Shown piece by piece: positions 3,337 through 36,798 of a DNA stretch of 64,000 nucleotides (positions are counted from its first letter, which is position 1; each line of letters opens with the position of its first letter). The position numbers and the translations under genes are program-made. Source of the DNA: an uncultured Clostridia bacterium (GTDB lineage Bacteria > Bacillota > Clostridia > TANB77 > CAG-508); the NCBI GenBank assembly GCA_944388805.1, contig CALXKE010000004.1:6799-70798 (forward strand). Direction: 5' to 3'. The notes under the pieces were generated by a model that saw only the letters and a list, made by a program, of their open reading frames with translations, was not told the origin of the DNA and made no database searches.

Positions 3337-3373
3337 GAGGGATTTTTTGTAGCAGGCTCATTTTTCCCTTTTT
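3337..3373. repeat. Solo, degenerate half-copy of PE1
   Basis: gagggattttttgtagcaggctcatttttcccttttt is the outer plus inner module of one arm only. Its inner end abuts the transketolase stop codon (3372-3374). Confidence 0.6.
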
Positions 3374-4301
3374 ACAATTTCTTAACTTGTTCCATAATAG
3401 CGTCACTTGTTAATCCAAAATATTTTAGCAACTCTACTGCATTTCCAGATTTTCCAAAAGTATCATGAATTCCCATTCGTGTTAATTTGCAAGGGTATTC
3501 TTCTGTTAGCACTTCACTAATGGCACTTCCTAATCCGCCAATGACACTATGGTCTTCTATAGAAATTAGTTTTTTTGTTTCTTTTGCTGATTTGACAATT
3601 ATTTCTTTGTCAATTGGTTTAATGGTATGCATATCCACAACTCTAATATGCATGCCTTCTTCTTCAAGAAGTTCTTTTGCTTTTATCGCTTCAGCTACAA
3701 CCACACCTGTTGCAAAAACTGTTGCATCTGTTCCTTCTCCTATTTGAACTGCCTTTCCAATTTCAAATGTTTGATTTTTTTCATAAATTTCTGGTGTTGC
3801 CAATCTTGCTAATCTTACATATACAGGCCCTTTTATTTTTGAAATTTGCTCTATTAAATATTTTGTCTCTACATCATCAGATGGACATAACACTGTCATA
3901 TTTGGTAAAGCTCTCATTAAAGCTAAATCTTCTAACATTTGATGTGTTGCCCCATCTTCTCCTACGGTAATTCCAGCATGAGTTGCACATATTTTTACAT
4001 TTAAATTTGGATAACAAATGCTTGAACGTATTTGGTCATAGGCACGTCCTGCTGCAAAAGCTGCAAACGTACTAACATATGGTATCTTTCCACAAGATGC
4101 CATACCTGCTGCAACTCCCATCATATTTGCTTCTGCAATTCCCATATCAAAAAATCTGTCTGGAAATTTTTTTGCAAAGATACTGGTTTTGGTTGCTGCA
4201 GATAAATCTGCGTCTAAGACTATTATATTTTGATTTTCCTCTCCTAATTTTTCTAAAATTTCTCCATAACTTTGCCTAGTTGCTTTCTTCTCTTCTTTCA
4301 T
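3372..4301 (-). CDS. Transketolase, C-terminal (pyrimidine-binding plus C-terminal domain) subunit
   Basis: Strong family look (..DADLSAATKT..FFDMGIAEANMMGVAAG..THAGITVGEDGATHQ..). Start placed at MKEEKK (ATG 4301) behind AAAGGAGAGAG; the longer ORF to 4346 runs into a palindromic repeat. Confidence 0.85.
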   Translation of the reverse strand: MKEEKKATRQSYGEILEKLGEENQNIIVLDADLSAATKTSIFAKKFPDRFFDMGIAEANMMGVAAGMASCGKIPYVSTFAAFAAGRAYDQIRSSICYPNLNVKICATHAGITVGEDGATHQMLEDLALMRALPNMTVLCPSDDVETKYLIEQISKIKGPVYVRLARLATPEIYEKNQTFEIGKAVQIGEGTDATVFATGVVVAEAIKAKELLEEEGMHIRVVDMHTIKPIDKEIIVKSAKETKKLISIEDHSVIGGLGSAISEVLTEEYPCKLTRMGIHDTFGKSGNAVELLKYFGLTSDAIMEQVKKL

Positions 4302-4341
4302 GATACTCTCTCCTTTCATTTTTCCGTTCCGTACTCCATTC

Positions 4342-4494
4342 CTCAAAGGTATATATATTATATTTTAAACGGGCTTCGTGGGGACCGACACACTACATAC
4401 TCTTAATAAATCAGCAACAGTCCCGTGGGAGCTGATTTAGTTAGAGTATGTAAAGTGTTGGGATAGCGAAAAATATAATATATATACCTTTGAG
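4342..4494. repeat. 153-bp imperfect palindrome upstream of the transketolase C-subunit gene
   Basis: Outer arms ctcaaaggtatatatattatatttt / aaaatataatatatatacctttgag. Inner arms acactacatactcttaataaatcagc / gctgatttagttagagtatgtaaagtgt. Contains ggggaccgac. Confidence 0.8.
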
Positions 4495-4520
4495 CAATGG
4501 ACTATGGAACAAAGCTCTTC

Positions 4521-5423: not shown

Positions 5424-5501
5424 TTTAGGCTCACCACTTTCTTAAATTTACTTCATGTACCAATTTTATTTAATTAAAATTGTGTACAATAATTTCTTAT
5501 T

Positions 5502-6317
5502 TTAAACAAAAAACTTATACCAGGCTAATACAAATATTAGATTTAAAATATTGGATATCCCTAAAATAAATCCATAATTTATATTTTTACCATAATCCTT
5601 CTTTTCTGTTCTAATTCTTTTTCGTATATTTTCTATCTTATGCATTAATAATTTAATCGCTACTACAAGTGCTGTCATAATAATAGTATTAATTACAACA
5701 TATTCTCCGGTAAAAATAACCATTGTTAAAACAGCTAATATAACCCCATGAACATAACTATTTTTTGCATATCTTTTTAGTGTAACTGTATCTAAAATTA
5801 AAATAATGACATAAAATACTAGATATATAATATATCTATATATACTCTCTTTTTCTACTACACATAGATATATTATATATGCAATAGATAATAAAATCCC
5901 ATACATAGATATTGATTTTTCAATTTTTCGATTTTCAGAATCAATTCCTGCCATAATGAAAACGAAACACAAATAAAGAACCATAAATCCCCCTTCTGCA
6001 AGTAAGATTGGGTTTAGGTTATTTACACTGATATTCATTAAATATGCTATTATTACAAATGTGAATCCTGATAAAATCTCTAATATAAAATATCTAGGTC
6101 TAATTTTTTCTTTACAATATCTACATTTTCCTAATAAAAAGATATAACTAAATACAGGTATTAAATCTAAAAAATGTAATTTATGGTTACAATTAGGACA
6201 GTATGAAGGTGTATGTGTAATATCCTGTCTTTTGGGTATTCTGCTTATTGCTAATGTAAAAAAACTCCCAAATACAGTCCCCATTATTAATATTAATATA
6301 TATAGTAGAATATCCAT
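5502..6317 (-). CDS. Prepilin (type IV/A24) leader peptidase
   Basis: Polytopic membrane protein with paired Cys motifs YCPNCNHKL..GKCRYCKEKI typical of A24 peptidases. Start set at MDILLY (ATG 6317), 5 nt after AAGGAG; the track start at 6338 is a TTG. Confidence 0.8.
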   Translation of the reverse strand: MDILLYILILIMGTVFGSFFTLAISRIPKRQDITHTPSYCPNCNHKLHFLDLIPVFSYIFLLGKCRYCKEKIRPRYFILEILSGFTFVIIAYLMNISVNNLNPILLAEGGFMVLYLCFVFIMAGIDSENRKIEKSISMYGILLSIAYIIYLCVVEKESIYRYIIYLVFYVIILILDTVTLKRYAKNSYVHGVILAVLTMVIFTGEYVVINTIIMTALVVAIKLLMHKIENIRKRIRTEKKDYGKNINYGFILGISNILNLIFVLAWYKFFV

Positions 6318-8925: not shown

Positions 8926-9393
8926 ATGGAAAATCCAACAGAAACAAAAAAAACATATCAAGATTATGTAGATAAAAAATCTCCCAACTCACCAATTTTA
9001 AAAAATTGTTTTAATGCCTTTTGGGTAGGAGGTCTTATTTGTACAATTGGACAAATTATTCTTAATATTTGCAAAGATAGAGGCTTTGATACGCAAATTT
9101 CTGGGACAATTGTTTCCATTTTATTAATCGGCTTATCCGCTTTTCTTACTGGATTAAATATATTTAATAAAATTGGAAAATTTGCAGGGGCAGGTTCTCT
9201 AATTCCAATTACTGGATTTGCAAATTCTATTGTTTCTCCTGCCATGGAGTACAAATCAGAAGGTTATGTCATGGGTGTTGGTGGAAAAATGTTTACCGTT
9301 GCAGGACCTGTTTTAGTATTTGGTATATCTACTTCTATATTAATCGGTATTATATACTTAATTTTTAATACACAAAGCATTACTTTAGTTTAA
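8926..9393 (+). CDS. spoVAC: Stage V sporulation protein AC
   Basis: 155 aa, 4 TM. Conserved ..FWVGGLICTIGQ.. and ..IPITGFANSIVSPAME.. motifs. First gene of a spoVAC-AD-AE cluster. Confidence 0.9.
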   Translation: MENPTETKKTYQDYVDKKSPNSPILKNCFNAFWVGGLICTIGQIILNICKDRGFDTQISGTIVSILLIGLSAFLTGLNIFNKIGKFAGAGSLIPITGFANSIVSPAMEYKSEGYVMGVGGKMFTVAGPVLVFGISTSILIGIIYLIFNTQSITLV

Positions 9394-9508
9394 AGGTTGC
9401 CAAAGGGGACGGGCCATTTTGGCAACTTATTACCGACTTTTGATTTATCCTATATATAGTTATAGTGTTAAAAGTTGCCAAAATAGCCCGTCCCCTTTGG
9501 CAACCTTT
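9392..9508. repeat. Palindromic element (PE1-related, type H) inside the spoVAC-spoVAD intergenic gap
   Basis: 36-nt arms aaaggttgccaaaGGGGACGGgccattttggcaact / agttgccaaaatagcccgtcccctttggcaaccttt. The left end overlaps the spoVAC TAA and the right end abuts the spoVAD SD. Confidence 0.88.
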
Positions 9509-14972: not shown

Positions 14973-15123
14973 GAGGGATTTTGGGGACGGACGAAAAGGG
15001 AAATCGGGGACGGACTCATTTTTCCCTTTTTACAAAATTTAATATATTTTAAAGTTGTTTTGGAGAAAAAGGGAAAAATGAGTCCGCCCCGATTTCCCTT
15101 TTCGTCCGTCCCCAAAATCCCTC
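14973..15123. repeat. Palindromic element PE1 (GGGGACGG-module family), full copy A
   Basis: Arms gagggattttGGGGACGGacgaaaagggaaatcGGGGACGGactcatttttcccttttt and their near-perfect reverse complement, around a 34-nt AT loop (acaaaatttaatatatttt..). Lies between the whiA start and the prmC stop. Confidence 0.9.
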
Positions 15124-16064: not shown

Positions 16065-16237
16065 GACAAATCTCGCTTCTCGAGAACTTTTCTCTACTTT
16101 TCTAACTTAACTTTATATATTTAAGTTCTCGAAGAAGCGTAAAGATTTGTCGACGCGAAAAATTGCGTAGCAATTTTTCTGTGCAACGTTTTTTTGTGGT
16201 ATAGGAAAAAGTCATTTTTCCTATACCACAAAAAAAA
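16065..16237. repeat. Three-hairpin intergenic element, family PE2, copy b
   Basis: Same architecture and about 60 nt of near-identity with copy a. The third hairpin tttttttgtggtatagg..cctataccacaaaaaaa directly follows the 6S RNA 3' end. Confidence 0.8.
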
Positions 16238-16441
16238 GCCCCGCCTTAGCCGTCAGCTTTTTAATTTTTAAGGACCTGCTCCTAAAAACAGGTGGGTGCC
16301 TACCTAAATACTTATGGGCTTCTCACTATATACTGTGAGCATGCACGCCATATTCGAGAGATCAGCCCCTCTTATAATTTGTTGGTTCTAAAAATTATGC
16401 TCTTACGTACTACGCAGGGATTTTTGTAATCCTTATTAGAT
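16230..16441 (-). ncRNA. ssrS: 6S RNA (SsrS)
   Basis: Minus strand ..GCGUGCAUGCUCACAGUAUAUAGUGAGAAGCCCAUAAG.. parallels the E. coli 6S central segment GAGCAUGCUCGGUCCGUCCGAGAAGCCUUAAAAC (recalled from memory). The 5' CCCUGC-UAG-CGU-AGC-UAAUUUUUAG pairs with the 3' CUUAAAAAUUA-GCU-ACG-CUA-GCGGGG to form a long closing helix. The RNA ends in U8, is GC-richer than the flanks, has no ORF and is about 200 nt. Confidence 0.65.
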
Positions 16442-19916: not shown

Positions 19917-20537
19917 CTAAACTCTAATTTTGTATTCTTTTAATAATGCTAAAATATCTTGGCTATCATTTGGTTTTACTCTTCTTCCCAATATTCCTAA
20001 TTTATTTGCTGTTTCTAAACTCTTCCCTGTGTCATCATCATCAATAAATAAACATTCTTCCGGACTTAAATGATATCTATCTAGCAAAGTCATGAATATC
20101 TTTTCATCAGGTTTTACTAAGTGTTCATAAGCTGAAATCATAATTCCATCACATATTTTAAAGAAATGTATCTCTTTAAAATATGTATAAGTAAATTCTG
20201 ACATATTTGATAAAACATATATATGATATCCTTTTTCCTTTAAGTCTTTTGCAATTTTCACAGTTTCTTCATTGACTGTAAAATACTGACATCTATTATT
20301 CATTACCTCTTCAATTAACTCGCTATACTCCTTCGGAGCTTTTCGTTGCATTTCTTTTATCGCTTGTTCATGGCTAATATTTCCTAAATCTAATAAATTC
20401 CACTCTTCTGTTTTATAAATGTATTTTTGTAAATCTTCTGCTTTATTAACATCATTTGTAAAATTCATTAATGTTTTTATATTAGAATCTTTTTTTATAA
20501 TCACATTCATTAAATCAAATATAATATTTTTTATCAT
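19917..20537 (-). CDS. HAD-superfamily hydrolase
   Basis: N-terminal IIFDLMNVI (motif I variant), SNMS (motif II), FIDDD (motif IV). 206 aa. Confidence 0.7.
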   Translation of the reverse strand: MIKNIIFDLMNVIIKKDSNIKTLMNFTNDVNKAEDLQKYIYKTEEWNLLDLGNISHEQAIKEMQRKAPKEYSELIEEVMNNRCQYFTVNEETVKIAKDLKEKGYHIYVLSNMSEFTYTYFKEIHFFKICDGIMISAYEHLVKPDEKIFMTLLDRYHLSPEECLFIDDDDTGKSLETANKLGILGRRVKPNDSQDILALLKEYKIRV

Positions 20538-20572
20538 TTTTTCTTTTCCTTTACATATTTTAATTATGTTCT

Positions 20573-20827
20573 TTATTCCTCTTCATCCATGATTCCAATA
20601 CGATATTCAATATTTTCCATATGTGGAAACATTTCCTTTACTCTTTTTAGTGTCAGCATTGTCATTTTAGGTTGTGGGTTTTTAGGATTTTTAGATAATA
20701 ATTTTTGTGTATAACAATTTGATGCTGTTTTAAACAATAAATAGCGATTTCTTACATAGGTATAATAAATCTGATATCCATCATCTAAATCCTCCCACAT
20801 CATTTCAAATGTATAGTTTTTGTCCAT
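20573..20827 (-). CDS. Small hypothetical protein
   Basis: ATG 20827 (MDKNYTFEMMWEDLDDGYQIYY..) is 7 nt after AAAGGAGG. The upstream part of track ORF 20573-20884 runs through a palindromic repeat. Confidence 0.55.
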   Translation of the reverse strand: MDKNYTFEMMWEDLDDGYQIYYTYVRNRYLLFKTASNCYTQKLLSKNPKNPQPKMTMLTLKRVKEMFPHMENIEYRIGIMDEEE

Positions 20828-20841
20828 TTTTTCCTCCTTTT

Positions 20842-20872
20842 GTCTCATAGAGTTCGTTTGTCTATGCGACAT
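20842..20872. repeat. Short palindromic repeat P3 (gtc-catagag-ttcgttt-gtctatgcgac), copy 1
   Basis: gtctcatagagttcgtttgtctatgcgacat is the reverse complement (1 mismatch) of 58458-58490. Confidence 0.75.
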
Positions 20873-20915
20873 TTTTTGTCCCATTAGGACCGTTTCTGTT
20901 TGCGATATTTTGAAC

Positions 20916-23084
<2,169 letters not shown>

Positions 23085-23172
23085 TTGTAATTTTATTTTC
23101 TTTCCTATTATATACAATTCGAGTAAAAAAATAAAGGAATTTTAAAAAATTCCTTATTTAAATCAAATGAAT

Positions 23173-23844
23173 TTATCTATCTTGTTTTTCCACAATTTCA
23201 TTCTTATTCTTATAAATACTATTTTCTGGAACCACACCTCTTACAGAAGATAATGGATAAATATTTGAATTTCTTCCAATAACTGTTCCTGGATTTAATA
23301 CAGAACCACACCCAACTTCTACATTATCTCCAAGCATAGCTCCCACTTTTTTTCTCTTAGTTTCCATGGTTTCTTTACCATTTTTTATGATAACTAATTG
23401 TTTATCTGATTTTACATTAGATGTAATAGAACCTGCTCCCATATGTGCTTTATATCCTAAAATAGAGTCTCCTACATAGTTATAATGTGGAACTTGCACT
23501 TTATTAAATAAAATAACATTTTTTAATTCAGTCGAATTTCCAACAACTGCCCCTTCTCCTACAATCGCATTTCCTCTAATAAATGCACAATGTCTTACTT
23601 CTGCGTCTTTTCCAATAATGGCAGGACCATTAATATATGCTGTTGGTGCTACTTTTGCACTTTTTGCAATCCACACATTTTCTCCTACTTTTTCATATTC
23701 GTTTTTATCTAATGTTTCTCCTAATTCTAAAATATAGTCTCCTATATTAGGCAATACTTCCCAAGGATATGTACTTTTTTCTAATAACGTTTTTGCAATT
23801 GTTTCTTCTAAATTATATAAATTTTTAATTTTACATTCTTCCAT
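23173..23844 (-). CDS. Left-handed beta-helix (hexapeptide-repeat) transferase, GlmU C-terminal-domain-like
   Basis: Repeated [LIV]-G-x4 hexapeptides (..IGKDAEVRHCAFIRGNAIVGEGAVVGNSTELKNVILF..). Start placed at MEECKIK (ATG 23844) behind AAAGGA; the track ORF start at 23910 lies inside repeat C. Confidence 0.7.
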   Translation of the reverse strand: MEECKIKNLYNLEETIAKTLLEKSTYPWEVLPNIGDYILELGETLDKNEYEKVGENVWIAKSAKVAPTAYINGPAIIGKDAEVRHCAFIRGNAIVGEGAVVGNSTELKNVILFNKVQVPHYNYVGDSILGYKAHMGAGSITSNVKSDKQLVIIKNGKETMETKRKKVGAMLGDNVEVGCGSVLNPGTVIGRNSNIYPLSSVRGVVPENSIYKNKNEIVEKQDR

Positions 23845-23866
23845 TATTCTCATTCCTTTCTCAAAT

Positions 23867-24012
23867 GTGATTTGGGGACGGACGAAAAGGGAAATCGGGG
23901 ACGGACTCATTTTTCCCTTTTTGCTTAAATAACTAAAAAAATATATTAAATTTTATAAAAAGGGAAAAATGAGTCCGTCCCCGATTTCCCTTTTCGTCCG
24001 TCCCCAAATCCC
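23867..24012. repeat. Palindromic element PE1, full copy C (inverted relative to B)
   Basis: Arm sequence as in copy A. Its right terminus ..ccccaaatccc directly abuts the TAA stop (24013-24015) of the pyrophosphorylase gene. Confidence 0.9.
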
Positions 24013-25257
24013 TTAATTTCTGTTCCAAAATTTTTCATATAATTCCTTTGCTGTTTTTGGACTATCTACTCCTTCTTTGTTTTTCACAGGTGCAAAGTCA
24101 TCTTCTCTTTTTCCTCTTAAAATGGCAATATCATCAAATAATTCAAAAGCATCAAATATGAAGGATTCAAATTTATATGAATTTTCTTCTTGCGGAATTA
24201 CTTCTTTTCCATTTTCATCTATATATGAATTTTTCTTAAAAGCACTGTGATATATTAATGTTTCTTTACTTATCTTTTCAATAGCTTCTATTGTATATAA
24301 ATTACACATAATATGGGCTTCTCCATATTTTAGTTCCCCATCTTCATCTACTTCTTCTGCCATTTTATCTGGCATTTCTGAATATTCAATAACTTTAGGG
24401 TGTCCATTCATTTTGGCAAATACGCCAACACGTTCATGTGGATTTGCTTTAACAATTGATTTTGACGCAATTTGTACTTTTTTATCAATTGCCATTCCTA
24501 ACAAAATGGTATCTGCCATTTTTAGTAAGGCATTATCGACTCCTCCAATAAATACCCATTTGATTCCTTTTTCTTTCATTTCTGCTAAACATCCACTTGC
24601 TCTTAGAGAAGAATATGTACCACCATTTCCATCAGATGCTTCCTTTATTTTCATATCTTTTCCTACTAGTAATTTTCCATTTACATCTACTAAAGGCAAT
24701 TCACTTTGTGCAAAAAATCTTACGGAATCTTTGTCATATCCAAAATAGTTATGTTTTTCCATAAATTCAATTGTTTCATCATTATTTTGTTTACTTGTCA
24801 TGATATACCATGGAATCACTCTACCATATTTTTGATTGGCTTCTTTTAAATTTTCTGCTAATATTTCAAATAAATATTTTCCTTTTCCATAAACATCTAA
24901 TTTAAAAGTTCCTTTTGGACCTGAATGTCCTAACCTTGTTCCTTGACCACCTGCCATGGTTACCACAGCATATTCACCTTTTTCTAGGATGGCATCTCCC
25001 AATCTTTGAAATTTTTCTTTTTGCTCTTCTGATAATTTTTTCTTATCTAAATATGGTAATGGCTCTATTTTATTTTCTTTTATTTCTATTTCTTTTTTTG
25101 TATTGTCATATAATTCTTTTAATTGGTGAAAATCAATCTTGCTAATTTGTTCTACCAATGCTTGTTTTTTATCTTCATCTAATTTTTCTATCAATTTTAT
25201 AATATGTTCTTGATTATACATTTTTAATATGTCTATTGTGTCCTGTACCTTATCCAT
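24013..25257 (-). CDS. UDPGP-family UDP-sugar (UDP-N-acetylhexosamine-type) pyrophosphorylase
   Basis: VTMAGGQGTRLGHSGPKGTF nucleotide-binding loop and ..DGNGG.. motifs typical of UAP/UGP type-1 family enzymes. 414 aa. Confidence 0.8.
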   Translation of the reverse strand: MDKVQDTIDILKMYNQEHIIKLIEKLDEDKKQALVEQISKIDFHQLKELYDNTKKEIEIKENKIEPLPYLDKKKLSEEQKEKFQRLGDAILEKGEYAVVTMAGGQGTRLGHSGPKGTFKLDVYGKGKYLFEILAENLKEANQKYGRVIPWYIMTSKQNNDETIEFMEKHNYFGYDKDSVRFFAQSELPLVDVNGKLLVGKDMKIKEASDGNGGTYSSLRASGCLAEMKEKGIKWVFIGGVDNALLKMADTILLGMAIDKKVQIASKSIVKANPHERVGVFAKMNGHPKVIEYSEMPDKMAEEVDEDGELKYGEAHIMCNLYTIEAIEKISKETLIYHSAFKKNSYIDENGKEVIPQEENSYKFESFIFDAFELFDDIAILRGKREDDFAPVKNKEGVDSPKTAKELYEKFWNRN

Positions 25258-25407
25258 TTTGTTTCGCTCCTTTTAGCTAATATAGTATAGTATATGTTTT
25301 CATTTTAATATTGACATTTTATCATACTCCAATATTTTTATCAAGTTTTTTAAAAAACTTGTCATAAACCTAGAAAAATTCCAATATACATTAAGTAAAG
25401 TAATTTA

Positions 25408-25543
25408 GAACAAAAGCGACATGATTAGAAACTTTGTCCTTTTAGTTAAATTACATGTCGCGTCTTTGTTCGTGCACCAATTTTATGTAAGTAAAATTGT
25501 GTGCAACGATTTTACTTTTAGAAAATCACATTTTCTAAAAGTA
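25408..25543. repeat. Three-hairpin element, family PE2, diverged copy c
   Basis: Same order as copies a and b: long hairpin (gaacaaaagcgacatg../..catgtcgcgtctttgttc), then gtgcac-caatttta-tgtaag-taaaattg-tgtgcaac, then acttttagaaaat-cac-attttctaaaagt. Stems differ from a/b but stay paired, and the flanking gtgca/tgtgcaac is conserved. Confidence 0.6.
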
Positions 25544-25581
25544 TGCAAACATTTTGAAAGTGATTAAAAGGAGGTATATAG

Positions 25582-27060
25582 ATGGAAAATACAAGATTGT
25601 ATCAAGACATCGCAAAAAGGACTGATGGAGATATTTATGTAGGAGTCGTTGGTCCTGTACGAACTGGTAAATCCACTTTTATTAAAAGATTTATGGATTT
25701 ATTAGTCATTCCCAACATTGATAATGAATACAAAAAAGAAAGGGCTAAAGATGAATTACCACAAAGTGCTGGTGGTAGAACTATCATGACAACAGAACCA
25801 AAATTCGTTCCTAATGAAGCAATTGAAATCACCTTAAATGACAATTTAAAATTCAAAGCAAGATTAGTAGATTGTGTTGGATATTTAGTAGATAATGCGA
25901 TTGGCTATTTAGAAGATGACATGCCTAGAATGGTAAAAACACCTTGGTCTGAGGAAGAAATTCCTTTTGAAACAGCCGCTGAAATTGGGACAAAAAAGGT
26001 AATTGAAGAACATTCTACGATTGGTGTTTTAGTTACAACTGATGGAACTATCACAGATATTCCAAGGGAAGATTATGTAAAAGCTGAAGAAAGAGTTGTT
26101 AATGAATTAAAAGCTTTAAATAAGCCATTTATTATTTTATTAAATTCAAATGACCCTGATTCAGAATATACAAAAGAGCTTGCAGAAGAACTAAGCGAAA
26201 AATACAATACATCTGTTATGCCTCTTAATTGTGAATATTTAACGATTGAAAATATTAATACGATGTTTTCAAAAGTATTATATGAATTTCCTGTTGACCA
26301 AATCTGCATCAAATTTCCTAGATGGATTGATGGATTAGATATGTCACACCCTTTAAAAACAGAATTATATAAAGAAATTAAAGATGCTTTTTCTAATGTA
26401 AATGTCCTAAAAGAAATCTCAGGCTGTGCAGATACCATTAAACAAACAGAAATCATTTCAAAAACTTCTATAACAGATATCCAGTTAGGTACTGGAAAAG
26501 TAAATGTAGAAATCACCTTAAAAGAAGAATTATTCTACCAAGTGCTTACAGAAATTACAGGTATTCCAGTTTCTAATGAAGGAGATTTGTTTAGTATTAT
26601 TTCTGAATTAGCTGATGTGAAAAAGAAATATGATAAAATCGCTTATGCCTTAGATGAAGTTAATAGAAAAGGTTATGGAATTGTAACACCTTCAATGGAT
26701 GAATTAATCTTAGAAGAACCAGAAATGGTAAAACAAGGATCAAAATTTGGCGTAAAATTAAAAGCCATGGCTCCTTCTATTCACCTTATTAAAACCAATG
26801 TTGCAACAGAAGTATGCCCAATTGTTGGTTCTGAAAAACAATCAGAAGAATTAGTCAATTACTTACTTTCAGGATTTGAAAGTGATCCTCAAAAAATCTG
26901 GGAATCAAATATCTTTGGAAAAAGTCTACATGAATTGGTAAATGAAGGCTTACAAACCAAACTGGCCAAAATGCCTGAAGAAGCACAAATTAAATTACAA
27001 GAAACATTAGAAAGAATTGTTAATGAAGGTAGTGGTGGATTGATTTGTATTATTCTTTAA
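25582..27060 (+). CDS. spoIVA: Stage IV sporulation protein A (spore coat morphogenetic ATPase)
   Basis: YVGVVGPVRTGKSTFIKRFM Walker A and full-length 492 aa with a conserved C-terminus ..GSGGLICIIL. Strong SD AAAGGAGG. Confidence 0.93.
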   Translation: MENTRLYQDIAKRTDGDIYVGVVGPVRTGKSTFIKRFMDLLVIPNIDNEYKKERAKDELPQSAGGRTIMTTEPKFVPNEAIEITLNDNLKFKARLVDCVGYLVDNAIGYLEDDMPRMVKTPWSEEEIPFETAAEIGTKKVIEEHSTIGVLVTTDGTITDIPREDYVKAEERVVNELKALNKPFIILLNSNDPDSEYTKELAEELSEKYNTSVMPLNCEYLTIENINTMFSKVLYEFPVDQICIKFPRWIDGLDMSHPLKTELYKEIKDAFSNVNVLKEISGCADTIKQTEIISKTSITDIQLGTGKVNVEITLKEELFYQVLTEITGIPVSNEGDLFSIISELADVKKKYDKIAYALDEVNRKGYGIVTPSMDELILEEPEMVKQGSKFGVKLKAMAPSIHLIKTNVATEVCPIVGSEKQSEELVNYLLSGFESDPQKIWESNIFGKSLHELVNEGLQTKLAKMPEEAQIKLQETLERIVNEGSGGLICIIL

Positions 27061-27098
27061 AGTAGACCTTTAGGAACGTACCCAATCGTTTCAAAATT

Positions 27099-27136
27099 GA
27101 AAACGGGCCTAGAAATTTTCATTCTAGACTCGTTTT
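27099..27136. terminator. Bidirectional terminator between convergent spoIVA and the phosphatase gene
   Basis: aaaacgggcctagaa-attttca-ttctagactcgttttt, an imperfect stem with flanking A and T runs. Confidence 0.55.
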
Positions 27137-29603: not shown

Positions 29604-31895
29604 ATGGAACAAGATATCGTAAAAACAAACAGAGCAAAACTATTATCTGATTTTATTAATGAAATGAAAGTATCTATAAAAAAACATAATATAAAAGGAG
29701 AATTACCTAGCAAAACATATATCTATACCAGAATTGCAGATTATACCCATTATGCAGAAGTGAGTATCCGAAAATTTTTGACTGGTAGTATTCCAAAAGA
29801 CATTCCTAGTTTTTTGCAAGGAATCCTAGAATATGCAAAATTGGTACAAGTGGATGATTCTAAGATTGATACATTTGCCAAAAATTATTTATCTGCTACC
29901 AATACAGTTGTTTTTCAGGATACAACTATCCAAACCAAAAATAATTTAATTCCTCAAGACTTAAGCAAAATTATTCGTTCTCAAAAACTAACTTCATTTT
30001 TAGATGATTTTATCAATCATCCTATTAATATTGCTTATATTTATGGATATAAATTAGGTGGAAAATCAAAATCTGTTATGGCATATATGTATGATTTGAG
30101 CTTAAAAAATAAATTTGAAAATATGATTTGGATCAATCTAAAAAGGGAAAATCAATTATCTACTATTTTAGATACTATTTTGCTTTTCAATTTAGAAAAT
30201 AAAGCAGAAATCAAACCTGAAGAAAAACAAGATGCCTGTCTAGAGTTTATAAAAAGCAGTAAATCTATCCTTATATTCGATTTTGATGATGACATTATCC
30301 AAGATGAAACCATTACCTTTATAAAAAACTTTTCTAAAATTTCAAAAATAGTAATGATTACTTCTATTCCTTATCATCAATATGAAAATTCCTTAGATAC
30401 CTATTGTTCTAGTTTTTGTATTAACGACTTCATTTCTAAGGAAGAGCTAAAAGCTATGCTTCATACAACAGAAGACTTCAAAAAAATTATAGATATGCAA
30501 CCTTCATTAGTCGATACATTATATTCCATTACTGGTGGCATTCCATTTGCCTCTATCTATTTAATGAAAAAAATTGTCAATGCCAATAAGCTTGGAATTT
30601 CTTTAGAAAAAGCTATTTCTAAATATACAAAAACAAATGAAGATTATAAACTCATGTCAGAAAAAATCATTCATGATATATGGAAAGAATTAAGTCCAAT
30701 CGCAAAAAAAATCGTCATTATTTGTGCAAATTTTAAGTATACCATATCAATTGAACTTGTTTCCTACATATTGCATTTAGATATATTATCAACTGAGTGG
30801 CAAGAAGCTATTACAGAATGTTATACAAATGATTTATTAATCCCGATTATTCAAAATAATCCTAGATTAGATATGCACAATTTAATCAAAACACTTGTCT
30901 TAGTAAATGCTTCTGAAGAAGATTTTGATAAAGAAACATTTTTGAAACAATTGGCAAAATTTTATATGGATAAATCTGCCTATGTAGGTGAATGTTATAA
31001 TGACATTTCTAAATTAAAATTATTTGATGAATTAGACGAATGGAACATTACAAAACAAGTTTTAAATATGTTAGAAGAAAATATATTATATAAAGAATAT
31101 ATTACCATTATTAGAAATTTAAAATACTATATTTATGTTAGAGGTATGTGGAATAAAGGTGAAGATTCCCCACATTTAAAAAGAGCGAAAATGGCAAATA
31201 TGATTCAAGATAAAAATGAGGAATTAGAAGCTTTATGTGATTATATTAATATCATGTCTAAATCACAAAACCAAGAAGAAGCAGAGAAATATTTAGATAT
31301 TGCTTCAAAAATTGTTGATAAAGGAAAAGATTCTTTAGAAAAACGTATTGTTTGCTTATTTTATCATGTAAAAGCTTTATATACTTGTAACTGTCTGAAA
31401 AATTACAAAGAAAGTTATGACATATGGATGAATATTAAAGAAAACTATTTTCCTTATATTAACGAATATCGAAAATTGGTAACAGATTTATGGATTACCA
31501 GATGTTATTTAAAAATCGAAAATGCTTTTGATTTAAAATATAACATGTTAATTGAACGTCTAGAAGAAGCCAAACTTGCCAATTTCACTCGTGGGCAAGC
31601 AGATTATCGCCTTTTATTAATTTCTTTGCTATTAGAAAATTATGTAACTAGTAAAGACACGAATCTTTTGAAAAAAGCAAATACGCAATTAAAAGCTTGC
31701 GAAAAATTTCTAAAAGACAATGATTTAGATGATATTCGAAACGAAGCTCTATATTATCGATTACAAACCATATACTCTGTTTATACAAATGACTTTGAAA
31801 AAGCTGAAGAATTTTGTCAAAAAGCTATTAAAGACTATGAAATGATGAATTGCAAAAAAGATATTGAGAGTTTGCTTGAAATTTTGAATCATTAG
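29604..31895 (+). CDS. STAND-type signal-transduction NTPase: N-terminal HTH-like region, P-loop NTPase, C-terminal TPR-like helical repeats
   Basis: Walker A GYKLGGKSKS and Walker B-like SILIFDFDDD. The N-terminal ~70 aa are HTH-like (..YTRIADYTHYAEVSIRKFLTG..). The C-terminal ~330 aa are helical and repeat-like. ATG 29604 is 5 nt after GGAGG. AT-rich, with no CGG. Confidence 0.65.
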   Translation: MEQDIVKTNRAKLLSDFINEMKVSIKKHNIKGELPSKTYIYTRIADYTHYAEVSIRKFLTGSIPKDIPSFLQGILEYAKLVQVDDSKIDTFAKNYLSATNTVVFQDTTIQTKNNLIPQDLSKIIRSQKLTSFLDDFINHPINIAYIYGYKLGGKSKSVMAYMYDLSLKNKFENMIWINLKRENQLSTILDTILLFNLENKAEIKPEEKQDACLEFIKSSKSILIFDFDDDIIQDETITFIKNFSKISKIVMITSIPYHQYENSLDTYCSSFCINDFISKEELKAMLHTTEDFKKIIDMQPSLVDTLYSITGGIPFASIYLMKKIVNANKLGISLEKAISKYTKTNEDYKLMSEKIIHDIWKELSPIAKKIVIICANFKYTISIELVSYILHLDILSTEWQEAITECYTNDLLIPIIQNNPRLDMHNLIKTLVLVNASEEDFDKETFLKQLAKFYMDKSAYVGECYNDISKLKLFDELDEWNITKQVLNMLEENILYKEYITIIRNLKYYIYVRGMWNKGEDSPHLKRAKMANMIQDKNEELEALCDYINIMSKSQNQEEAEKYLDIASKIVDKGKDSLEKRIVCLFYHVKALYTCNCLKNYKESYDIWMNIKENYFPYINEYRKLVTDLWITRCYLKIENAFDLKYNMLIERLEEAKLANFTRGQADYRLLLISLLLENYVTSKDTNLLKKANTQLKACEKFLKDNDLDDIRNEALYYRLQTIYSVYTNDFEKAEEFCQKAIKDYEMMNCKKDIESLLEILNH

Positions 31896-32019
31896 GGACG
31901 TGTCAAATTGGACATTTTTCGTTTAAAAGGGACAGATTAGGTCTGTCCCTTTTGTTTCATTTTGGAACATTGGGGACAGGTTAAATCGTTTCAAAATGAA
32001 ACGATTTGGCACGTCCCTA
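31893..32019. repeat. Compound palindromic element (GGGAC family) filling the gap between two convergent genes
   Basis: Termini TAGGGACGTGTCAAAT / ATTTGGCACGTCCCTA (1 mismatch). Inner hairpins are aaaagggacag-atta-ggtctgtccctttt and aatcgtttca-aaa-tgaaacgatt. Both flanking stop codons (TAG 31893-31895 plus strand, TAG at 32017-32019 minus strand) lie inside the terminal repeats. Confidence 0.85.
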
Positions 32020-33042
32020 TCGTTTCAGATTTTTTCTTCTTAATTGCCCACATGCTGCATCTATGTCTGATCCTAGTTCTCTTCTAATGGTTGCCACAAT
32101 CCCATGGTCATTCAAGTAATCTCTAAATTTCATGATATTTTCATTTGAACTTTTTGTATATGCTCCATTTTCAATTTTATTAATGGGAATTAAATTCACA
32201 TGGCAAAGCATCCCTTTTAACAATTTTACTAATCGTTTGGCATCTTCTAAGTTATCATTATTTTCTTTTGCTAATGCATACTCAAATGAGATTCTTCTAT
32301 GTGTTTTTTCAATATAGTCCTTACATGCTTGTAGTAATTCTTCTATATGATATCTATTGTTTACTGGCATCATTTCACTTCTTTGTTCATCTGTTGTTGC
32401 ATGTAAAGAAATGGATAAGGTACATTGTATATTTTCTTCTGCCAATTGATATATTTTTGGTACTAAACCACTTGTTGATATACTAATATGTCTTGCTCCT
32501 ATATTTAATCCTTTTGGATGGTTGATAATTCTAATTGCTTTTACGACATTATCATAATTATCTAATGGTTCTCCGATTCCCATAAAGACAATATTTGAGA
32601 TTCTAACATTGGCATCTCTTTCTACAGCCATAATTTGTTCAATAATTTCTCCACTACTTAAATTTCTTGCAAATGGAATTCCTGTTGATGCACAAAATTT
32701 ACATCCCATTTTACAACCAATTTGAGATGATACACAGATGCTATATCCATAATGATATTGCATCAATACAGTTTCAATGGCATTTCCGTCTAAAACATCA
32801 AATAAATATTTTCTTGTTCCATCTGATGCTACTTGTTTTTTTAATATTTTAAATTCTTTTATTTCATAGATTTGTTTTAATTTTTCTCTTAATTCTAATG
32901 ATAAATTGGTCATTTCATCAAACTCAGAAACTCTTGCTTCATAAAGCCATTTATATATTTGTTCTGCTCGAAATGGCTTTTCTCCGATTTCTTTTAGTTC
33001 TTCTTTTAATTCATCTAATGTATAGTCTTTAATATTTTTCAT
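32017..33042 (-). CDS. rlmN: 23S rRNA/tRNA adenine-C2 methyltransferase RlmN (radical SAM)
   Basis: CKMGCKFCAS radical-SAM motif, ..GMGEPL.., ..SLHA.. Start set at MKNIKDY (ATG 33042) behind AGAGAGG. Confidence 0.9.
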   Translation of the reverse strand: MKNIKDYTLDELKEELKEIGEKPFRAEQIYKWLYEARVSEFDEMTNLSLELREKLKQIYEIKEFKILKKQVASDGTRKYLFDVLDGNAIETVLMQYHYGYSICVSSQIGCKMGCKFCASTGIPFARNLSSGEIIEQIMAVERDANVRISNIVFMGIGEPLDNYDNVVKAIRIINHPKGLNIGARHISISTSGLVPKIYQLAEENIQCTLSISLHATTDEQRSEMMPVNNRYHIEELLQACKDYIEKTHRRISFEYALAKENNDNLEDAKRLVKLLKGMLCHVNLIPINKIENGAYTKSSNENIMKFRDYLNDHGIVATIRRELGSDIDAACGQLRRKNLKR

Positions 33043-34481: not shown

Positions 34482-34686
34482 GAGGGATTTTGGGGACGGA
34501 CTCATTTTTCCCTTTTTATGGATAATCCCCAAATCATAAATCATTATATATAGTTTTATGTATAAGCAAATTACTTTTCTGAATTGAAATTCAGATATGA
34601 AAGCATAATAGTTCTTTTTTATCATTTATATTTTTATAAGTTATAGTTTAAAAAAGGGAAAAATGAGTCCGTCCCCAAAATCCCTC
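34482..34686. repeat. Palindromic element PE1, copy D (short arms, long loop)
   Basis: The arms gagggattttGGGGACGGactcatttttcccttttt lack the middle module of copies A and C. The ~130-nt loop contains an inverted partial terminus (atccccaaat) and a small hairpin tctgaatt-gaa-aattcaga. Confidence 0.88.
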
Positions 34687-35457: not shown

Positions 35458-35625
35458 TATTCTATATTTCAAAAAAATGACGATTTGAAAATTTGTTCCT
35501 TTGTGGAATTCTCCAAATCGTCATTTTGGTCTTAACTTATTTTTATAATAACAACAATTTCATTTATATATTTTTCGTCATTATATTTCATTTTTGTTTT
35601 ATGAAACGTGCCCAATGGGACATCA

Positions 35626-36798
35626 TTAAAATGTTCCCAAAAGGACATCTGCCATTTCTTCCATTTGTGATATATTTTCATCACTCATTGTTGATTTTAT
35701 AGTTATTATAGGTTCTATAATATGGATATTTTTCATTTCTTCTAAAGTTCCCTTCATACATTTTCCAGCTGAAGGCGCCCATGAACCATTTTCTATAATT
35801 CCTACAGTCCTGTTTTGATAATTTCTTTCTTTTAAATGATCTAAAAATTGTTTCATTGGTGGAAATAGTCCTGCATTATAGCTAGAAGACGCAACAATTA
35901 AATGGGAATATCTAAATGCATCTTCAATAGCTTCTGCCCAATCTTCTTTTGTTAAATCTGCTAATACCACTTTTTTTGCACCTTTTTCTTTTAAGATTTC
36001 AGCTAATTTTTGAGCAGCTTTTAAGGTATTTCCATAGATAGAACTACAAGCAATATAGATTCCTTCTTCTTCTGGCTTGTAACTACTCCATGTATTATAT
36101 TTATCAATGTAATATCCTAAATTTTCTTTTAAGATTGGTCCATGTAAAGGACAAATCATTTGAATATCTAGTGTTGCTGCCTTTTTTAATAAGGCTTGTA
36201 CTTGCATTCCATATTTTCCGACAATTCCAAAATAATATCTTCTTGCTTCACAATCCCATTCTTCATCTGCATCCAATGCTCCAAATTTTCCAAAACCATC
36301 TGCTGAAAATAAGATTTTTTCTGTTTGCTCGTAAGTCACCATAACTTCTGGCCAATGTACCATTGGTGCCATAAAGAATTGTAATTTATGTTTTCCAATG
36401 TCTAATACATCACCTTCCATAACAACAAATTTTCTATTAGAAAAATCAATTTCTTTAAAGAAATTAGCAAGCATATTAAAGGTAAGCTGATTTCCAACAA
36501 TTTTCATTTCTGGATATTTTTTTGCTAATTTTCCTATATTATATGCATGATCTGGCTCCATATGAGAAACTATTAAATAATCTGGTTTTTCATCTTCTAA
36601 AGCTTTTTCTAAATTTTTGAACCATTCATCTGTTAATTTTTCATCAATTGTATCTAAAACGACATTTTTTTCATCTTTTATTAAGTAAGAATTGTAACTC
36701 ATTCCATTCTCTAATACATATTGGCTTTCAAATATTTTTATACTTTTATCACTTGCTCCAATATGGATAATATCCTTTGAAATTGTCATATCACTCAT
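35626..36798 (-). CDS. FprA-type flavoprotein (metallo-beta-lactamase-like domain plus flavodoxin-like domain)
   Basis: Di-iron/MBL motif SHMEPDHA and a C-terminal flavodoxin-like segment (IYIACSSIYGNT..). 390 aa. Confidence 0.8.
   Translation of the reverse strand: MSDMTISKDIIHIGASDKSIKIFESQYVLENGMSYNSYLIKDEKNVVLDTIDEKLTDEWFKNLEKALEDEKPDYLIVSHMEPDHAYNIGKLAKKYPEMKIVGNQLTFNMLANFFKEIDFSNRKFVVMEGDVLDIGKHKLQFFMAPMVHWPEVMVTYEQTEKILFSADGFGKFGALDADEEWDCEARRYYFGIVGKYGMQVQALLKKAATLDIQMICPLHGPILKENLGYYIDKYNTWSSYKPEEEGIYIACSSIYGNTLKAAQKLAEILKEKGAKKVVLADLTKEDWAEAIEDAFRYSHLIVASSSYNAGLFPPMKQFLDHLKERNYQNRTVGIIENGSWAPSAGKCMKGTLEEMKNIHIIEPIITIKSTMSDENISQMEEMADVLLGTF

Follow-up and report, generated by a model that had tools for sequence, protein, structure and literature searches.

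Short DNA hairpins that accompany a transposase of the Y1 (HUH) type are best known from the repetitive extragenic palindromic (REP) sequences, whose systems of REP or REPIN elements and REP-associated tyrosine transposases (RAYTs) have been worked out almost entirely in Proteobacteria. A very similar class, the TIRtrons, consists of RAYT-like genes (TIRYTs) flanked by long inverted repeats, many of which share the motif GGGGWSAS; self-complementarity is found in some of these repeats, and a few belong to families of moderate abundance in which they occur singly, as dimers or in groups, in an account that mentions no Firmicutes (Di Nocera et al. 2013, PMC3733652). The TIRYTs correspond to subclass 2.1 of the TnpA-Y1 proteins, which are long and carry a C-terminal extension of the helix-turn-helix (HTH) type (Bac_DnaA_C, HTH_23 or HTH_28-like), and REP-like structures were not found beside their genes in either automatic or manual searches (Quentin et al. 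2018, PMC6006769). Abundant flanking 16-mers have been reported for RAYT groups 2 and 3 only; in group 1, which is the same as subclass 2.1 and occurs in Clostridia too, flanking 16-mers are rare, at about 12 per replicon (Bertels et al. 2017, PMC5581495). Here we describe PE1, a family of palindromic repeats in a stretch of 64,000 nt with approximately 28 % G+C (the window) from an uncultured Clostridia bacterium (GenBank assembly GCA_944388805.1, contig CALXKE010000004.1, positions 6,799 to 70,798), together with a Y1 transposase gene that lies between hairpins with the same loop motif in related genomes.

We consider it likely that PE1 is a REP/REPIN-like family belonging to a Y1-associated superfamily; more specifically, it is probably the branch with stem types T1 and T2 (described below) of a superfamily of REP-like hairpins that has a Y1 partner of the RAYT/TIRYT type. 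As such, PE1 is a Gram-positive counterpart of the REP and REPIN elements of Escherichia coli and Pseudomonas and not a new kind of element. This view draws on direct observations of the anatomy of the repeat unit, the covariation of its stems, its distribution, polymorphism at individual sites, the lack of target-site duplication and the presence of a unit-bracketed Y1 gene at a conserved chromosomal position. A preliminary description of the window had noted behaviour like that of miniature inverted-repeat transposable elements (MITEs) or REP sequences, and this call is supported by the finding in relatives of a cognate-type Y1/HUH gene between GGGGACG hairpins, the closest solved structure to its product being the REP-associated transposase of E. 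coli. The same description did not recognize the family. A scan of the whole window with Rfam 15 at the gathering score gave no match to the repeats, and that a relaxed scan of the largest copy (copy E) gave only sub-threshold matches to microRNA precursors, which are typical of any long hairpin. The TIRtrons and TIRYTs with their GGGGWSAS motif represent a very similar class that had already been described.

The Clostridia system resembles TIRtrons and TIRYTs in its long RAYT-like Y1 protein (about 257 aa, compared with 165 aa in E. coli) with an extra C-terminal helical region, in the position of the gene between inverted repeats that carry a GGGG-A-C motif (one of them, GGGGACAC, fits GGGGWSAS and was seen in at least 11 loci), in the presence of single, dimeric and grouped repeats at other places in the genome, and in the small number of gene copies and their vertical-looking inheritance. 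It differs in its core, GGGGACGT/G, which departs from GGGGWSAS at position 7 (G, not A), in dispersed and outer flanking units that are clear hairpins with co-varying stems, and in the large dispersed repeat population in a Gram-positive clade; such a Clostridia family appears in neither of the two accounts of the class. By protein length, GGGG-A-C motif and inverted flanks the system would fit the TIRYT class, and it would be expected to work like a REP/REPIN-RAYT system.

The features held in common with the REP/BIME and REPIN-RAYT systems of E. coli and Pseudomonas (PMC3333891, PMC3479197, PMC3116915) are short intergenic hairpins, inverted doublets that fold into long structures, the presence in one genome of several repeat families, to each of which a separate Y1 gene belongs, a repeat-flanked (REPtron), single- or low-copy transposase gene at a stable chromosomal position, a preference for gene 3' ends, and a protein for which the E. 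coli structure 4ER8 is the best match in both sequence and fold. In contrast to those systems, the Clostridia motif lies within the loop, the protein has a C-terminal extension, and stacked units and large nested palindromes occur. The likeness to the IS200/IS605 insertion sequences (ISs) and to their palindrome-associated derivatives (PATEs) extends to Y1/HUH chemistry, the recognition of DNA hairpins and the absence of target duplication. However, IS200 TnpA, with about 130–150 aa, is present in multiple copies and is mobile together with its own ends, whereas the Clostridia gene is fixed beside radA, and the hairpins at IS ends are direct whereas the Clostridia units are inverted. An IS200/IS605 identity for the gene was rejected in view of its NCBIfam IS200 score of 22.6 bits (cut-off 55) and its one fixed location at the side of radA.

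Small repeats and MITEs of Gram-positive bacteria include pneumococcal BOX and RUP, Enterococcus EFAR and Bacillus bcr1 (listed in PMC3733652). Like the repeats described here, these are modular, intergenic, hairpin-forming and found in Firmicutes. To our knowledge, none of them is related in sequence to the Clostridia repeats or is associated with a Y1 gene. Defined terminal inverted repeats (TIRs) and target duplications are features of RUP and bcr1.

Hairpin units with a common loop motif

The basic unit is a hairpin of approximately 35 nt in which (TT)GGGGACG(G/T) occupies the 5' part of the loop and adjoins the 5' stem. The core GGGGACGG occurs 13 times in the window (7 on the plus and 6 on the minus strand) compared with 0.03 expected, and GGGGACG 14 times compared with 0.25. 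When all GGGGACG occurrences were listed with their flanks, at least five different stem types were seen around the one loop motif, namely T1 (AAAAGGGAAAtt / GGGGACGGACTCat / TTTCCCTTTT), T2 (GTTGCCAAA / GGGGACGGGCCAT / TTTGGCAAC), T3 (ATGTCCCA / TTGGGGACGTTTCTGTT / TGGGACAT), a fourth with the stem GAAACG/CGTTTC and a fifth with TGATGATTTT/AAAATCATCA. Contigs of one genome per species were scanned with the patterns GGGGACGGACTCATTTTTCCCTTTTT (first scan) and GGGGACGTTTCTGTTTGGGACA (T3 unit), which fixed the core and the 3' flank only and left the 5' flank free; loci of relatives are given L numbers, with 93 loci from the first scan. Among approximately 450 cores, the type of the 5' flank predicted that of the 3' flank (T1 in 182/191 and T3 in 199/204), the flank classes comprising 182 b-1, 199 c-3 (191 c and 8 c2) and 12 a-2 cores, and about 15 cores were stacked, the 5' half of a further unit coming after the core. 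The folding of canonical units as DNA is significant (z-scores −3 to −4.7).

All seven copies listed in the preliminary description were found where it placed them (Table 1), and they coincide with the longest pairs returned by an inverted-repeat finder, with arms of 32–59 nt that are 91–100 % complementary. Folded as single-stranded DNA, the copies have energies between −42 and −119 kcal/mol and z-scores between −11 and −20. Searches of the window with the arm strings gave no further copies, so that the list is complete for the T1 and T2 types; looser searches revealed decayed relatives beyond it at four sites. The loop a(c/t)aaaatttaatatatttt common to copies A, B and C and the position of the module junctions, right after GGGGACG(G), are likewise as first described. 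The modules M1, M2 and M3, from which the arms had been said to be assembled, are present as strings, but the natural unit is the hairpin, in which the sequences flanking the core pair and co-vary, and the modules are hairpin units that have been stacked or cut short. On this reading of the sequence M2 plus M3 makes up a complete T1 hairpin, and M1 is an extra 5' half-unit stacked outside it. Nesting of the units at a fixed target and transcription of the elements within operons, both put forward in the preliminary description, are possible. The palindromes of the list are inverted doublets of such units, some of them with extra stacked units.

Units occur alone, as inverted doublets, in tandem stacks and as doublets that enclose other palindromes. 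The core-to-core distances of 59 T1 doublets fall into classes of 82–93, 136–195, 267–291 and 458–462 nt. Doublets of the shortest class contain a non-palindromic spacer of 34 nt that is common to unrelated loci and species, in either orientation, and is also the spacer of copies A, B and C; the spacers of B and C are mutually reverse complementary, with 33/34 positions identical. The longer classes contain a second palindrome with the ends AAAAATATAGAATATAAA (the inner element is also cited by the ends ATATAGAATATAAA), and in the two longest classes further palindromes lie within; copy E is a member of the 460-nt class. A search for the ends of the inner palindrome with tolerance of one mismatch gave 146 matches; a T1 arm lies no more than 70 nt away from 102 of them, and the other 44 include many chance matches in AT-rich DNA and a few free copies without T1 arms. 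The inner palindrome was seen without GGGGACG arms in L058 (about 2587–2640; 2592), L148 (about 5460–5560; 5466) and L183, and it may be a separate element that favours the centres of T1 doublets. In many doublets a T3 unit, whole or incomplete, is fused to the T1 arms and forms an extra outer layer.

A Y1 transposase gene between inverted units

The preliminary description had pointed to a RAYT- or IS200-like transposase with matching ends as a possible partner. When inverted cores 0.6–3.5 kb apart were sought after the T3-unit scan, a Y1/HUH gene was found between inverted GGGGACG hairpins in relatives: an open reading frame (ORF) of 257–267 aa lies between two inverted T3 units in L145, L157, L172, L182 and L185, the frame in L185 being open for 197 aa only. 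The product scores 58–64 bits with Pfam Y1_Tnp (cut-off 23). A profile of 49 sequences had a sole significant match in the PDB, 4ER8 (E. coli TnpA-REP), in which NHVHL is aligned with EHMHC and RYIHQNP with DYIYINP; a single-sequence phmmer search of the PDB gave no match. In the alignment of homologues H61, H63, Y120 and N124 are invariant and P125 nearly so. In a Foldseek search the AlphaFold model (pLDDT 92.8) matched 4ER8 best (E 5.8e-7), the next matches being the IS608, ISDra2 and IS200 transposases, and residues from about 150 to 256 form a confidently modelled, all-helical extension; the C-terminal 120 aa gave no significant match to a Pfam family. The protein is closer to RAYT than to IS200 TnpA, with 61.5 bits from NCBIfam REP_Tyr_transpos and 22.6 bits from the IS200 model. 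Homologues in the protein collection number 4849, and the few with names are annotated as 'transposase' or as 'REP element-mobilizing transposase RayT'. When all ORFs of the first 93 loci were screened with a crude regular expression for HUH and Tyr, nothing matched.

A protein-alignment scan for the transposase gave 161 relatives, and the best 80 of these (L197–L276) all come from the same group of metagenome-assembled genomes (MAGs), including Clostridium sp. CAG:575. Inverted units with the invariant loop TTGGGGACG(T/G)TTC flank the gene on both sides or on one in approximately 60 of these 80 loci, and their stems compensate from genome to genome (ATGTCCCA/TGGGACAT, ATGTCTCA/TGAGACAT, ATGTCGCA/TGCGACAT, ATGTGAAA/TTTCACAT and TGTCAGTT/AACTGACA). 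A count of contiguous stems in the flanking units showed no covariation, by a criterion that was too strict, and alignment with MAFFT put the 3' stems in two registers; covariation was judged instead by constrained minimum free energy (MFE), with the core forced unpaired and with the 5' and 3' halves swapped between units as the control. The mean MFE of 126 distinct flanking units was −4.97 kcal/mol, compared with −3.26 kcal/mol (SD 0.16) for swapped halves, and a stem enclosed the core in 108 of the 126. Between hairpin and gene, on both sides or one, an inner repeat (...TTTGGGGACACATCT) is present in at least 11 loci; the form that fits GGGGWSAS stands beside the gene in L218, L223, L230, L233, L239, L248, L264, L266, L271, L273 and L274.

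In 68 of the 80 loci radA lies 60–200 nt downstream on the same strand, and the gene is therefore a fixed, vertically inherited resident and not a hopping insertion sequence. There are one or two transposase gene copies per genome, with at most two divergent paralogues and no identical duplicates, and protein identities fall to approximately 40 %. A scan with the RadA protein gave 80 radA loci, in 25 of which the transposase gene lies upstream of radA. The transposase gene is also present in a circular HiFi MAG of 1.57 Mb (OZ007016.1, L326). The members of a second paralogue group (L214–L216) are bracketed by a different hairpin family with the loop GAGTTCG or GAGATCG, and the paralogue in L213 by a third; RAYT paralogues have been described as each having a repeat family to themselves. 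The second family, (A)TGTCGCATAGA-GTTCGTTTG-TCTATGCGACAT, has two copies in the window (Table 1), which therefore holds at least two REP-like families.

Two further observations concern the Y1 genes themselves. In several genomes the frames are interrupted or cut to 177–203 aa (L260–L267, L206 and L272), and the rest of the broken protein matches in another frame (e.g. L291, L347 and L350), which suggests decay of the gene in part of the lineages. In both paralogue groups the Y1 genes are preceded by a conserved inverted repeat, AAAGTATAGCAAAAT..ATATGCTATACT, followed by TTTTTTGTTTTAGGGG (L277 at about 1440–1500, L280 and L278 each at about 2430–2480, and L215 upstream of the ORF). The repeat is kept before radA in genomes without the transposase gene and may be a promoter or leader element.

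Distribution and turnover of the repeats

The motif is not confined to the window but was found in at least 93 and at least 120 stretches, from many MAG species. All matches listed are from MAGs of uncultured Clostridia from the gut of chickens, mice, rabbits, goats and humans, with at least 66 cores in one MAG, and the host clade is one of uncultured, low-GC, spore-forming gut Clostridia. In RNA runs, 5–7 % of the query words were present, as fragmentary contigs of related strains. Among the 268 cores of the first 93 loci and the window, nine lie inside long ORFs and seven in divergent (promoter-side) spacers; the remainder lie between co-directional or convergent genes, at gene 3' ends. Solo units prefer the sense strand by 66 : 33 (196 loci and the window). 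No target-site duplication was found at the 59 doublets, at which the length distribution of candidate duplications equalled that of a shuffled control, and the outer ends of the palindromes are ragged, reaching 0–49 nt beyond the core.

Orthologous sites were compared in relatives whose coding DNA is 82–95 % identical to that of the window; the genes around the copies in the window are those named in the preliminary description, UDPGP, LbH and LigA in one region and SpoVAC in another. At site A, the inner stacked unit is missing from both arms in L084. Copy B is present in L010 (145/148 identical) and L026, and the site is without the element in L055, which has unrelated sequence and no unit, and in one metagenome contig; L076 and L081 retain only a short T3-like remnant there. 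In the latter two the spacer also holds extra genes (L076 4954–6102 and L081 2845–4902) with a prepilin-type N-terminus (GITLIALVITIIVLLILAGVTIATL), and these large insertions are thus not transposase genes. The LbH–ligA spacer is a variable spot, in which the window has only element B. No clean empty-site junctions could be derived for this element, the intergenic DNA of the relatives that lack it being too diverged.

At site C, five relatives (L076, L055, L026, L010 and L081) carry only a solo unit beside the stop codon, that of L081 having a T2 stem, and the perfect 54/54 doublet of the window is therefore, on grounds of parsimony, best read as a recent gain. At site E the orthologues in L073 and L011 have intact GGGGACGG cores, and in L011 the interior of approximately 400 nt is inverted relative to both the window and L073, with arms and flanks unmoved, which is the outcome expected of recombination between inverted arms.

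The condition of the repeats in the window can be set beside that of its closest relative, CALXFG, which has 94–95 % DNA identity to the window over 20354–27102. The radA gene of CALXFG is fused to what was formerly the transposase gene's own upstream region and, together with the decayed unit that is left there, this points to secondary deletion of the transposase gene; CALXFG still has T1 and T3 units and the second transposase paralogue. In the window every T3-type unit is decayed and the cores of copy E and of the solo arm are lost, with A to D intact, a pattern that would be expected of repeats that have lost, or are losing, their enzyme. Since the closest relative has deleted the radA-linked gene, the copies in the window may now be orphans. 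The recent gain at site C, however, speaks for continuing change.

Alternatives, mechanism and remaining features of the window

It is conceivable that the hairpins are DNA or RNA structures selected by the host, as terminators, as stabilizers of mRNA 3' ends or as a protein-binding site, and spread by recombination or gene conversion, the Y1 gene merely lying among them. Units are indeed nearly confined to gene 3' ends and convergent spacers, a T-run follows many of them and some abut a stop codon, solo units are on the sense strand by 2 : 1, one spacer may hold different unit types across species, and copies persist in a lineage that has lost the radA-linked transposase. We nevertheless regard this as unlikely, given that the bracketing of the Y1 gene by inverted units in approximately 60 of the 80 loci, with stems that co-vary with the genome, is the diagnostic REPtron arrangement, and that non-palindromic spacers of 34–400 nt are common to unrelated loci. 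Furthermore, copies A to C are situated inside tightly spaced operons, just before a ribosome-binding site (RBS) and with no T-run after the long hairpin, and so occupy a poor site for a terminator. An exapted structural role is, in any case, compatible with the REP-like reading that we prefer. Slightly less probable again is a separate, unsampled partner for the T1 and T2 palindromes (another Y1 paralogue, or an enzyme of the IS110 type or some other type), in which case GGGGACG would be common to them and the T3 units by descent only. It would agree with the finding of T3-like units only beside the radA-linked gene and of a distinct repeat type at each paralogue examined, with the intactness of T1 copies in the window while its T3-type units are all decayed, and with the gain of the site C doublet after the split from a relative that has no radA-linked gene; yet no other transposase-like ORF was found between T1 arms in 1.4 Mb of T1-rich loci, the identical core stands directly after the 5' stem in T1, T2 and T3 alike, and T3 units occur fused to T1 arms as an outer layer.

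Long terminal inverted repeats, discrete size classes and intergenic positions would also suit a classical MITE, that is, an internally deleted insertion sequence of the DDE type with fixed TIRs that moves by cut-and-paste and duplicates its target site. This is very improbable in view of the absence of target-site duplication at the 59 doublets, their ragged ends (0–49 nt), the abundance of solo arms and the lack of a DDE transposase between matching ends in the loci examined. We give the least credence, and hardly any, to the idea that GGGGACG is some other genome-wide signal, such as an uptake sequence, a Chi site or a polarity motif of the FtsK/SpoIIIE type, that lies in hairpins by chance. 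The motif is indeed a short, G-rich and strongly over-represented oligomer, and the uptake sequences of Neisseria also form inverted pairs at gene ends; but the window has nearly as many cores on one strand as on the other, and there is therefore no replication polarity, coding DNA is almost free of the motif, which sets it apart from Chi or FtsK-orienting polar sequences (KOPS), and the stems and spacers around it belong to a repeated unit.

Several observations weigh against our reading of PE1 as REP-like repeats served by the radA-linked enzyme. The window encodes no Y1 protein (tblastn E>2), in agreement with the earlier remark that no transposase is near the copies, and radA lies outside it; in CALXFG the radA-linked gene is gone, and only a decayed left unit (ATGTCCTTTTGGGAACGTTTTTGTGTGGGACAT) is left. 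The units that flank the gene in relatives are T3-like only, T1 and T2 having never been seen beside it, and the link from PE1 to the enzyme would thus be made through the common core and its position in the loop. The protein scores 61.5 bits with NCBIfam REP_Tyr_transpos, below the equivalog cut-off of 80, and the canonical 5' GTAG foot of REP sequences (GT[AG]G) is absent from the Clostridia units examined. As regards the unit itself, the D-type arm of the window (GAGGGATTTT...) forms no significant local hairpin (−1.6 kcal/mol, z −0.1), arms of this type being held together by arm-to-arm pairing only. Finally, the 66 : 33 bias of solo units cannot separate an effect of the DNA (replication) strand from one of the transcript, because in these genomes gene direction coincides completely with GC skew.

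With these points taken into account, the radA-linked enzyme could well be the mobilizer of PE1, and we put this forward as somewhat better than an even case. By analogy with the biochemistry of E. coli TnpA-REP and IS608 TnpA (PMC3333891, PMC3479197), we hypothesize that the enzyme recognizes the folded hairpin together with its loop motif on single-stranded DNA at the replication fork, cuts beside the core and rejoins the ends, and that units and doublets would in this way spread into the spacers at gene 3' ends without target duplication, T1 and T2 presumably using the same enzyme as the T3 units. Rejoined ends could yield doublets, stacked arms and chimeras, and rejoining at a cut beside the core would explain why the module junctions fall right after GGGGACG(G). 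After insertion, local remodelling may follow, in which recombination between arms flips the interior, the arms are kept symmetric and deletion reduces elements to solo units. The hairpins may also have a structural function in transcripts.

No REP-like partner structure and only rare flanking repeats are on record for group 1 (subclass 2.1), the largest of the RAYT groups; the Clostridia clade has a putative enzyme of this kind between true hairpins, with stems that co-vary over dozens of species and a large dispersed population. It is tempting to speculate, although we think it rather doubtful, that this is the first abundant population of REPIN-like hairpins tied to a group-1/subclass-2.1 Y1 transposase and the first in Firmicutes, with the loop motif as the point of cutting and rejoining, at which one unit would insert into or recombine with the core of another, and with stacked arms, Russian-doll palindromes and inner elements that prefer doublet centres. 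The units offer a natural alignment from which the determinants of recognition might be read, the loop being fixed and the stem free, and sister lineages that kept or deleted the gene provide a natural experiment on the decay of repeats without their transposase. Near-perfect palindromes of 150–470 nt within operons of gut Clostridia known from metagenomes only are also likely to matter as assembly breaks, as strain markers and through effects on the expression of flanking genes.

The individual copies, their decayed relatives and the hairpins of the second family in the window are listed in Table 1.

Table 1. Repeat elements of the window, with arm length and complementarity, folding as single-stranded DNA and genomic surroundings
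Feature	Position	Strand	Structure	Folding	Surroundings
Copy A	14973–15123		Inverted doublet of T1 units, 34-nt spacer; arms 38 nt, 100 %; each arm GAGGGATTTT-GGGGACGG plus a full T1 hairpin (ACGAAAAGGGAAATC-GGGGACGG-ACTCATTTTTCCCTTTTT)	−74.5 kcal/mol, z −16.4	Between stop of PrmC-like methyltransferase gene (15134) and RBS of a 50-aa ORF
Copy B	22937–23084		Doublet with T2 half-unit outermost; arms 59 nt, 93 %; 5' half of T2 unit (AAGTTGCCAAA-GGGGACG) stacked on AAATCGGGACATC-GGGGACGG-ACTCATTTTTCCC; left outer core mutated (GGAGAT)	−60.6 kcal/mol	Between LbH transferase gene and ligA
Copy C	23867–24012		Perfect doublet (54/54), arms as in A; arms 54 nt, 100 %	−69.9 kcal/mol	Right end abuts TAA stop (24013–24015) of UDPGP gene; LbH gene on other side
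Copy D	34482–34686		Doublet of single units (GAGGGATTTT-GGGGACGG-ACTCATTTTTCCCTTTTT), 133-nt spacer; arms 44 nt, 98 %	−47.5 kcal/mol, z −10.9	Downstream of choloylglycine hydrolase gene
Copy E	49817–50290		Doublet with decayed cores (GGGGCCAACCC); arms 32 nt, 91 %; encloses three further nested palindromes, inner arms approximately 49864–49885/50225–50244 (outermost set), 49921–49943/50167–50189 and 49951–49987/50119–50155 (next), 50011–50038/50065–50092 (innermost)	−119.1 kcal/mol, z −19.8	Between Spore_YtfJ and STAS genes; right end abuts TAA stop at 50291
T2 doublet	9392–9508		Two inverted units GTTGCCAAA-GGGGACGGGCCAT-TTTGGCAAC; arms 42 nt, 93 %	Single unit −10.2 kcal/mol, z −4.7; whole element −42.5 kcal/mol	Begins on last base of SpoVAC stop codon
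Solo T1 unit	3337–3373	+	Destroyed core, TTGTAGCAGG for GGGGACGGA; mutated core reads GAGGGATTTTTTGTAGCAGGCTCATTTTTCCCTTTTT		
Degenerate unit cluster	31879–32033		TTAGGGACGTGTCAAAT..., GAAACGAT-AGGGACGTGCCAAAT-CGTTTCA; intact-core versions of this unit type present in relatives		Around terminator-like hairpin, convergent genes
Degenerate T3-type unit	20877–20907	+	TGTCCCATTAGGACCGTTTCTGTTTGCGATA; intact T3 units bracket transposase gene in relatives		
Two degenerate T3-type remnants	35603–35648	−	ATGTCCCATTGGGCACGTTTC and ATGTCCTTTTGGGAACAT		
Degenerate GAAACG-stem unit	27072–27105	−	GAAACGATTGGGTACGTTCC		
Second-family hairpin	20841–20872	+			
Second-family hairpin	58457–58489	−			

Three other features of the window were noted. 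A 6S RNA (RF00013, 90.2 bits) at 16234–16423 on the minus strand is the sole Rfam family found at the gathering score. At 4326–4510, upstream of the ORF at 3372–4346 (minus strand), an inverted repeat of 41 nt (93 % complementary) surrounds a 31-nt hairpin (4385–4461); it is unrelated to the GGGGACG family and has no Rfam match. The region 58040–58456 (approximately 420 nt) contains no ORF, has a very low G+C content and many short A/T repeats, and ends at one of the second-family hairpins.

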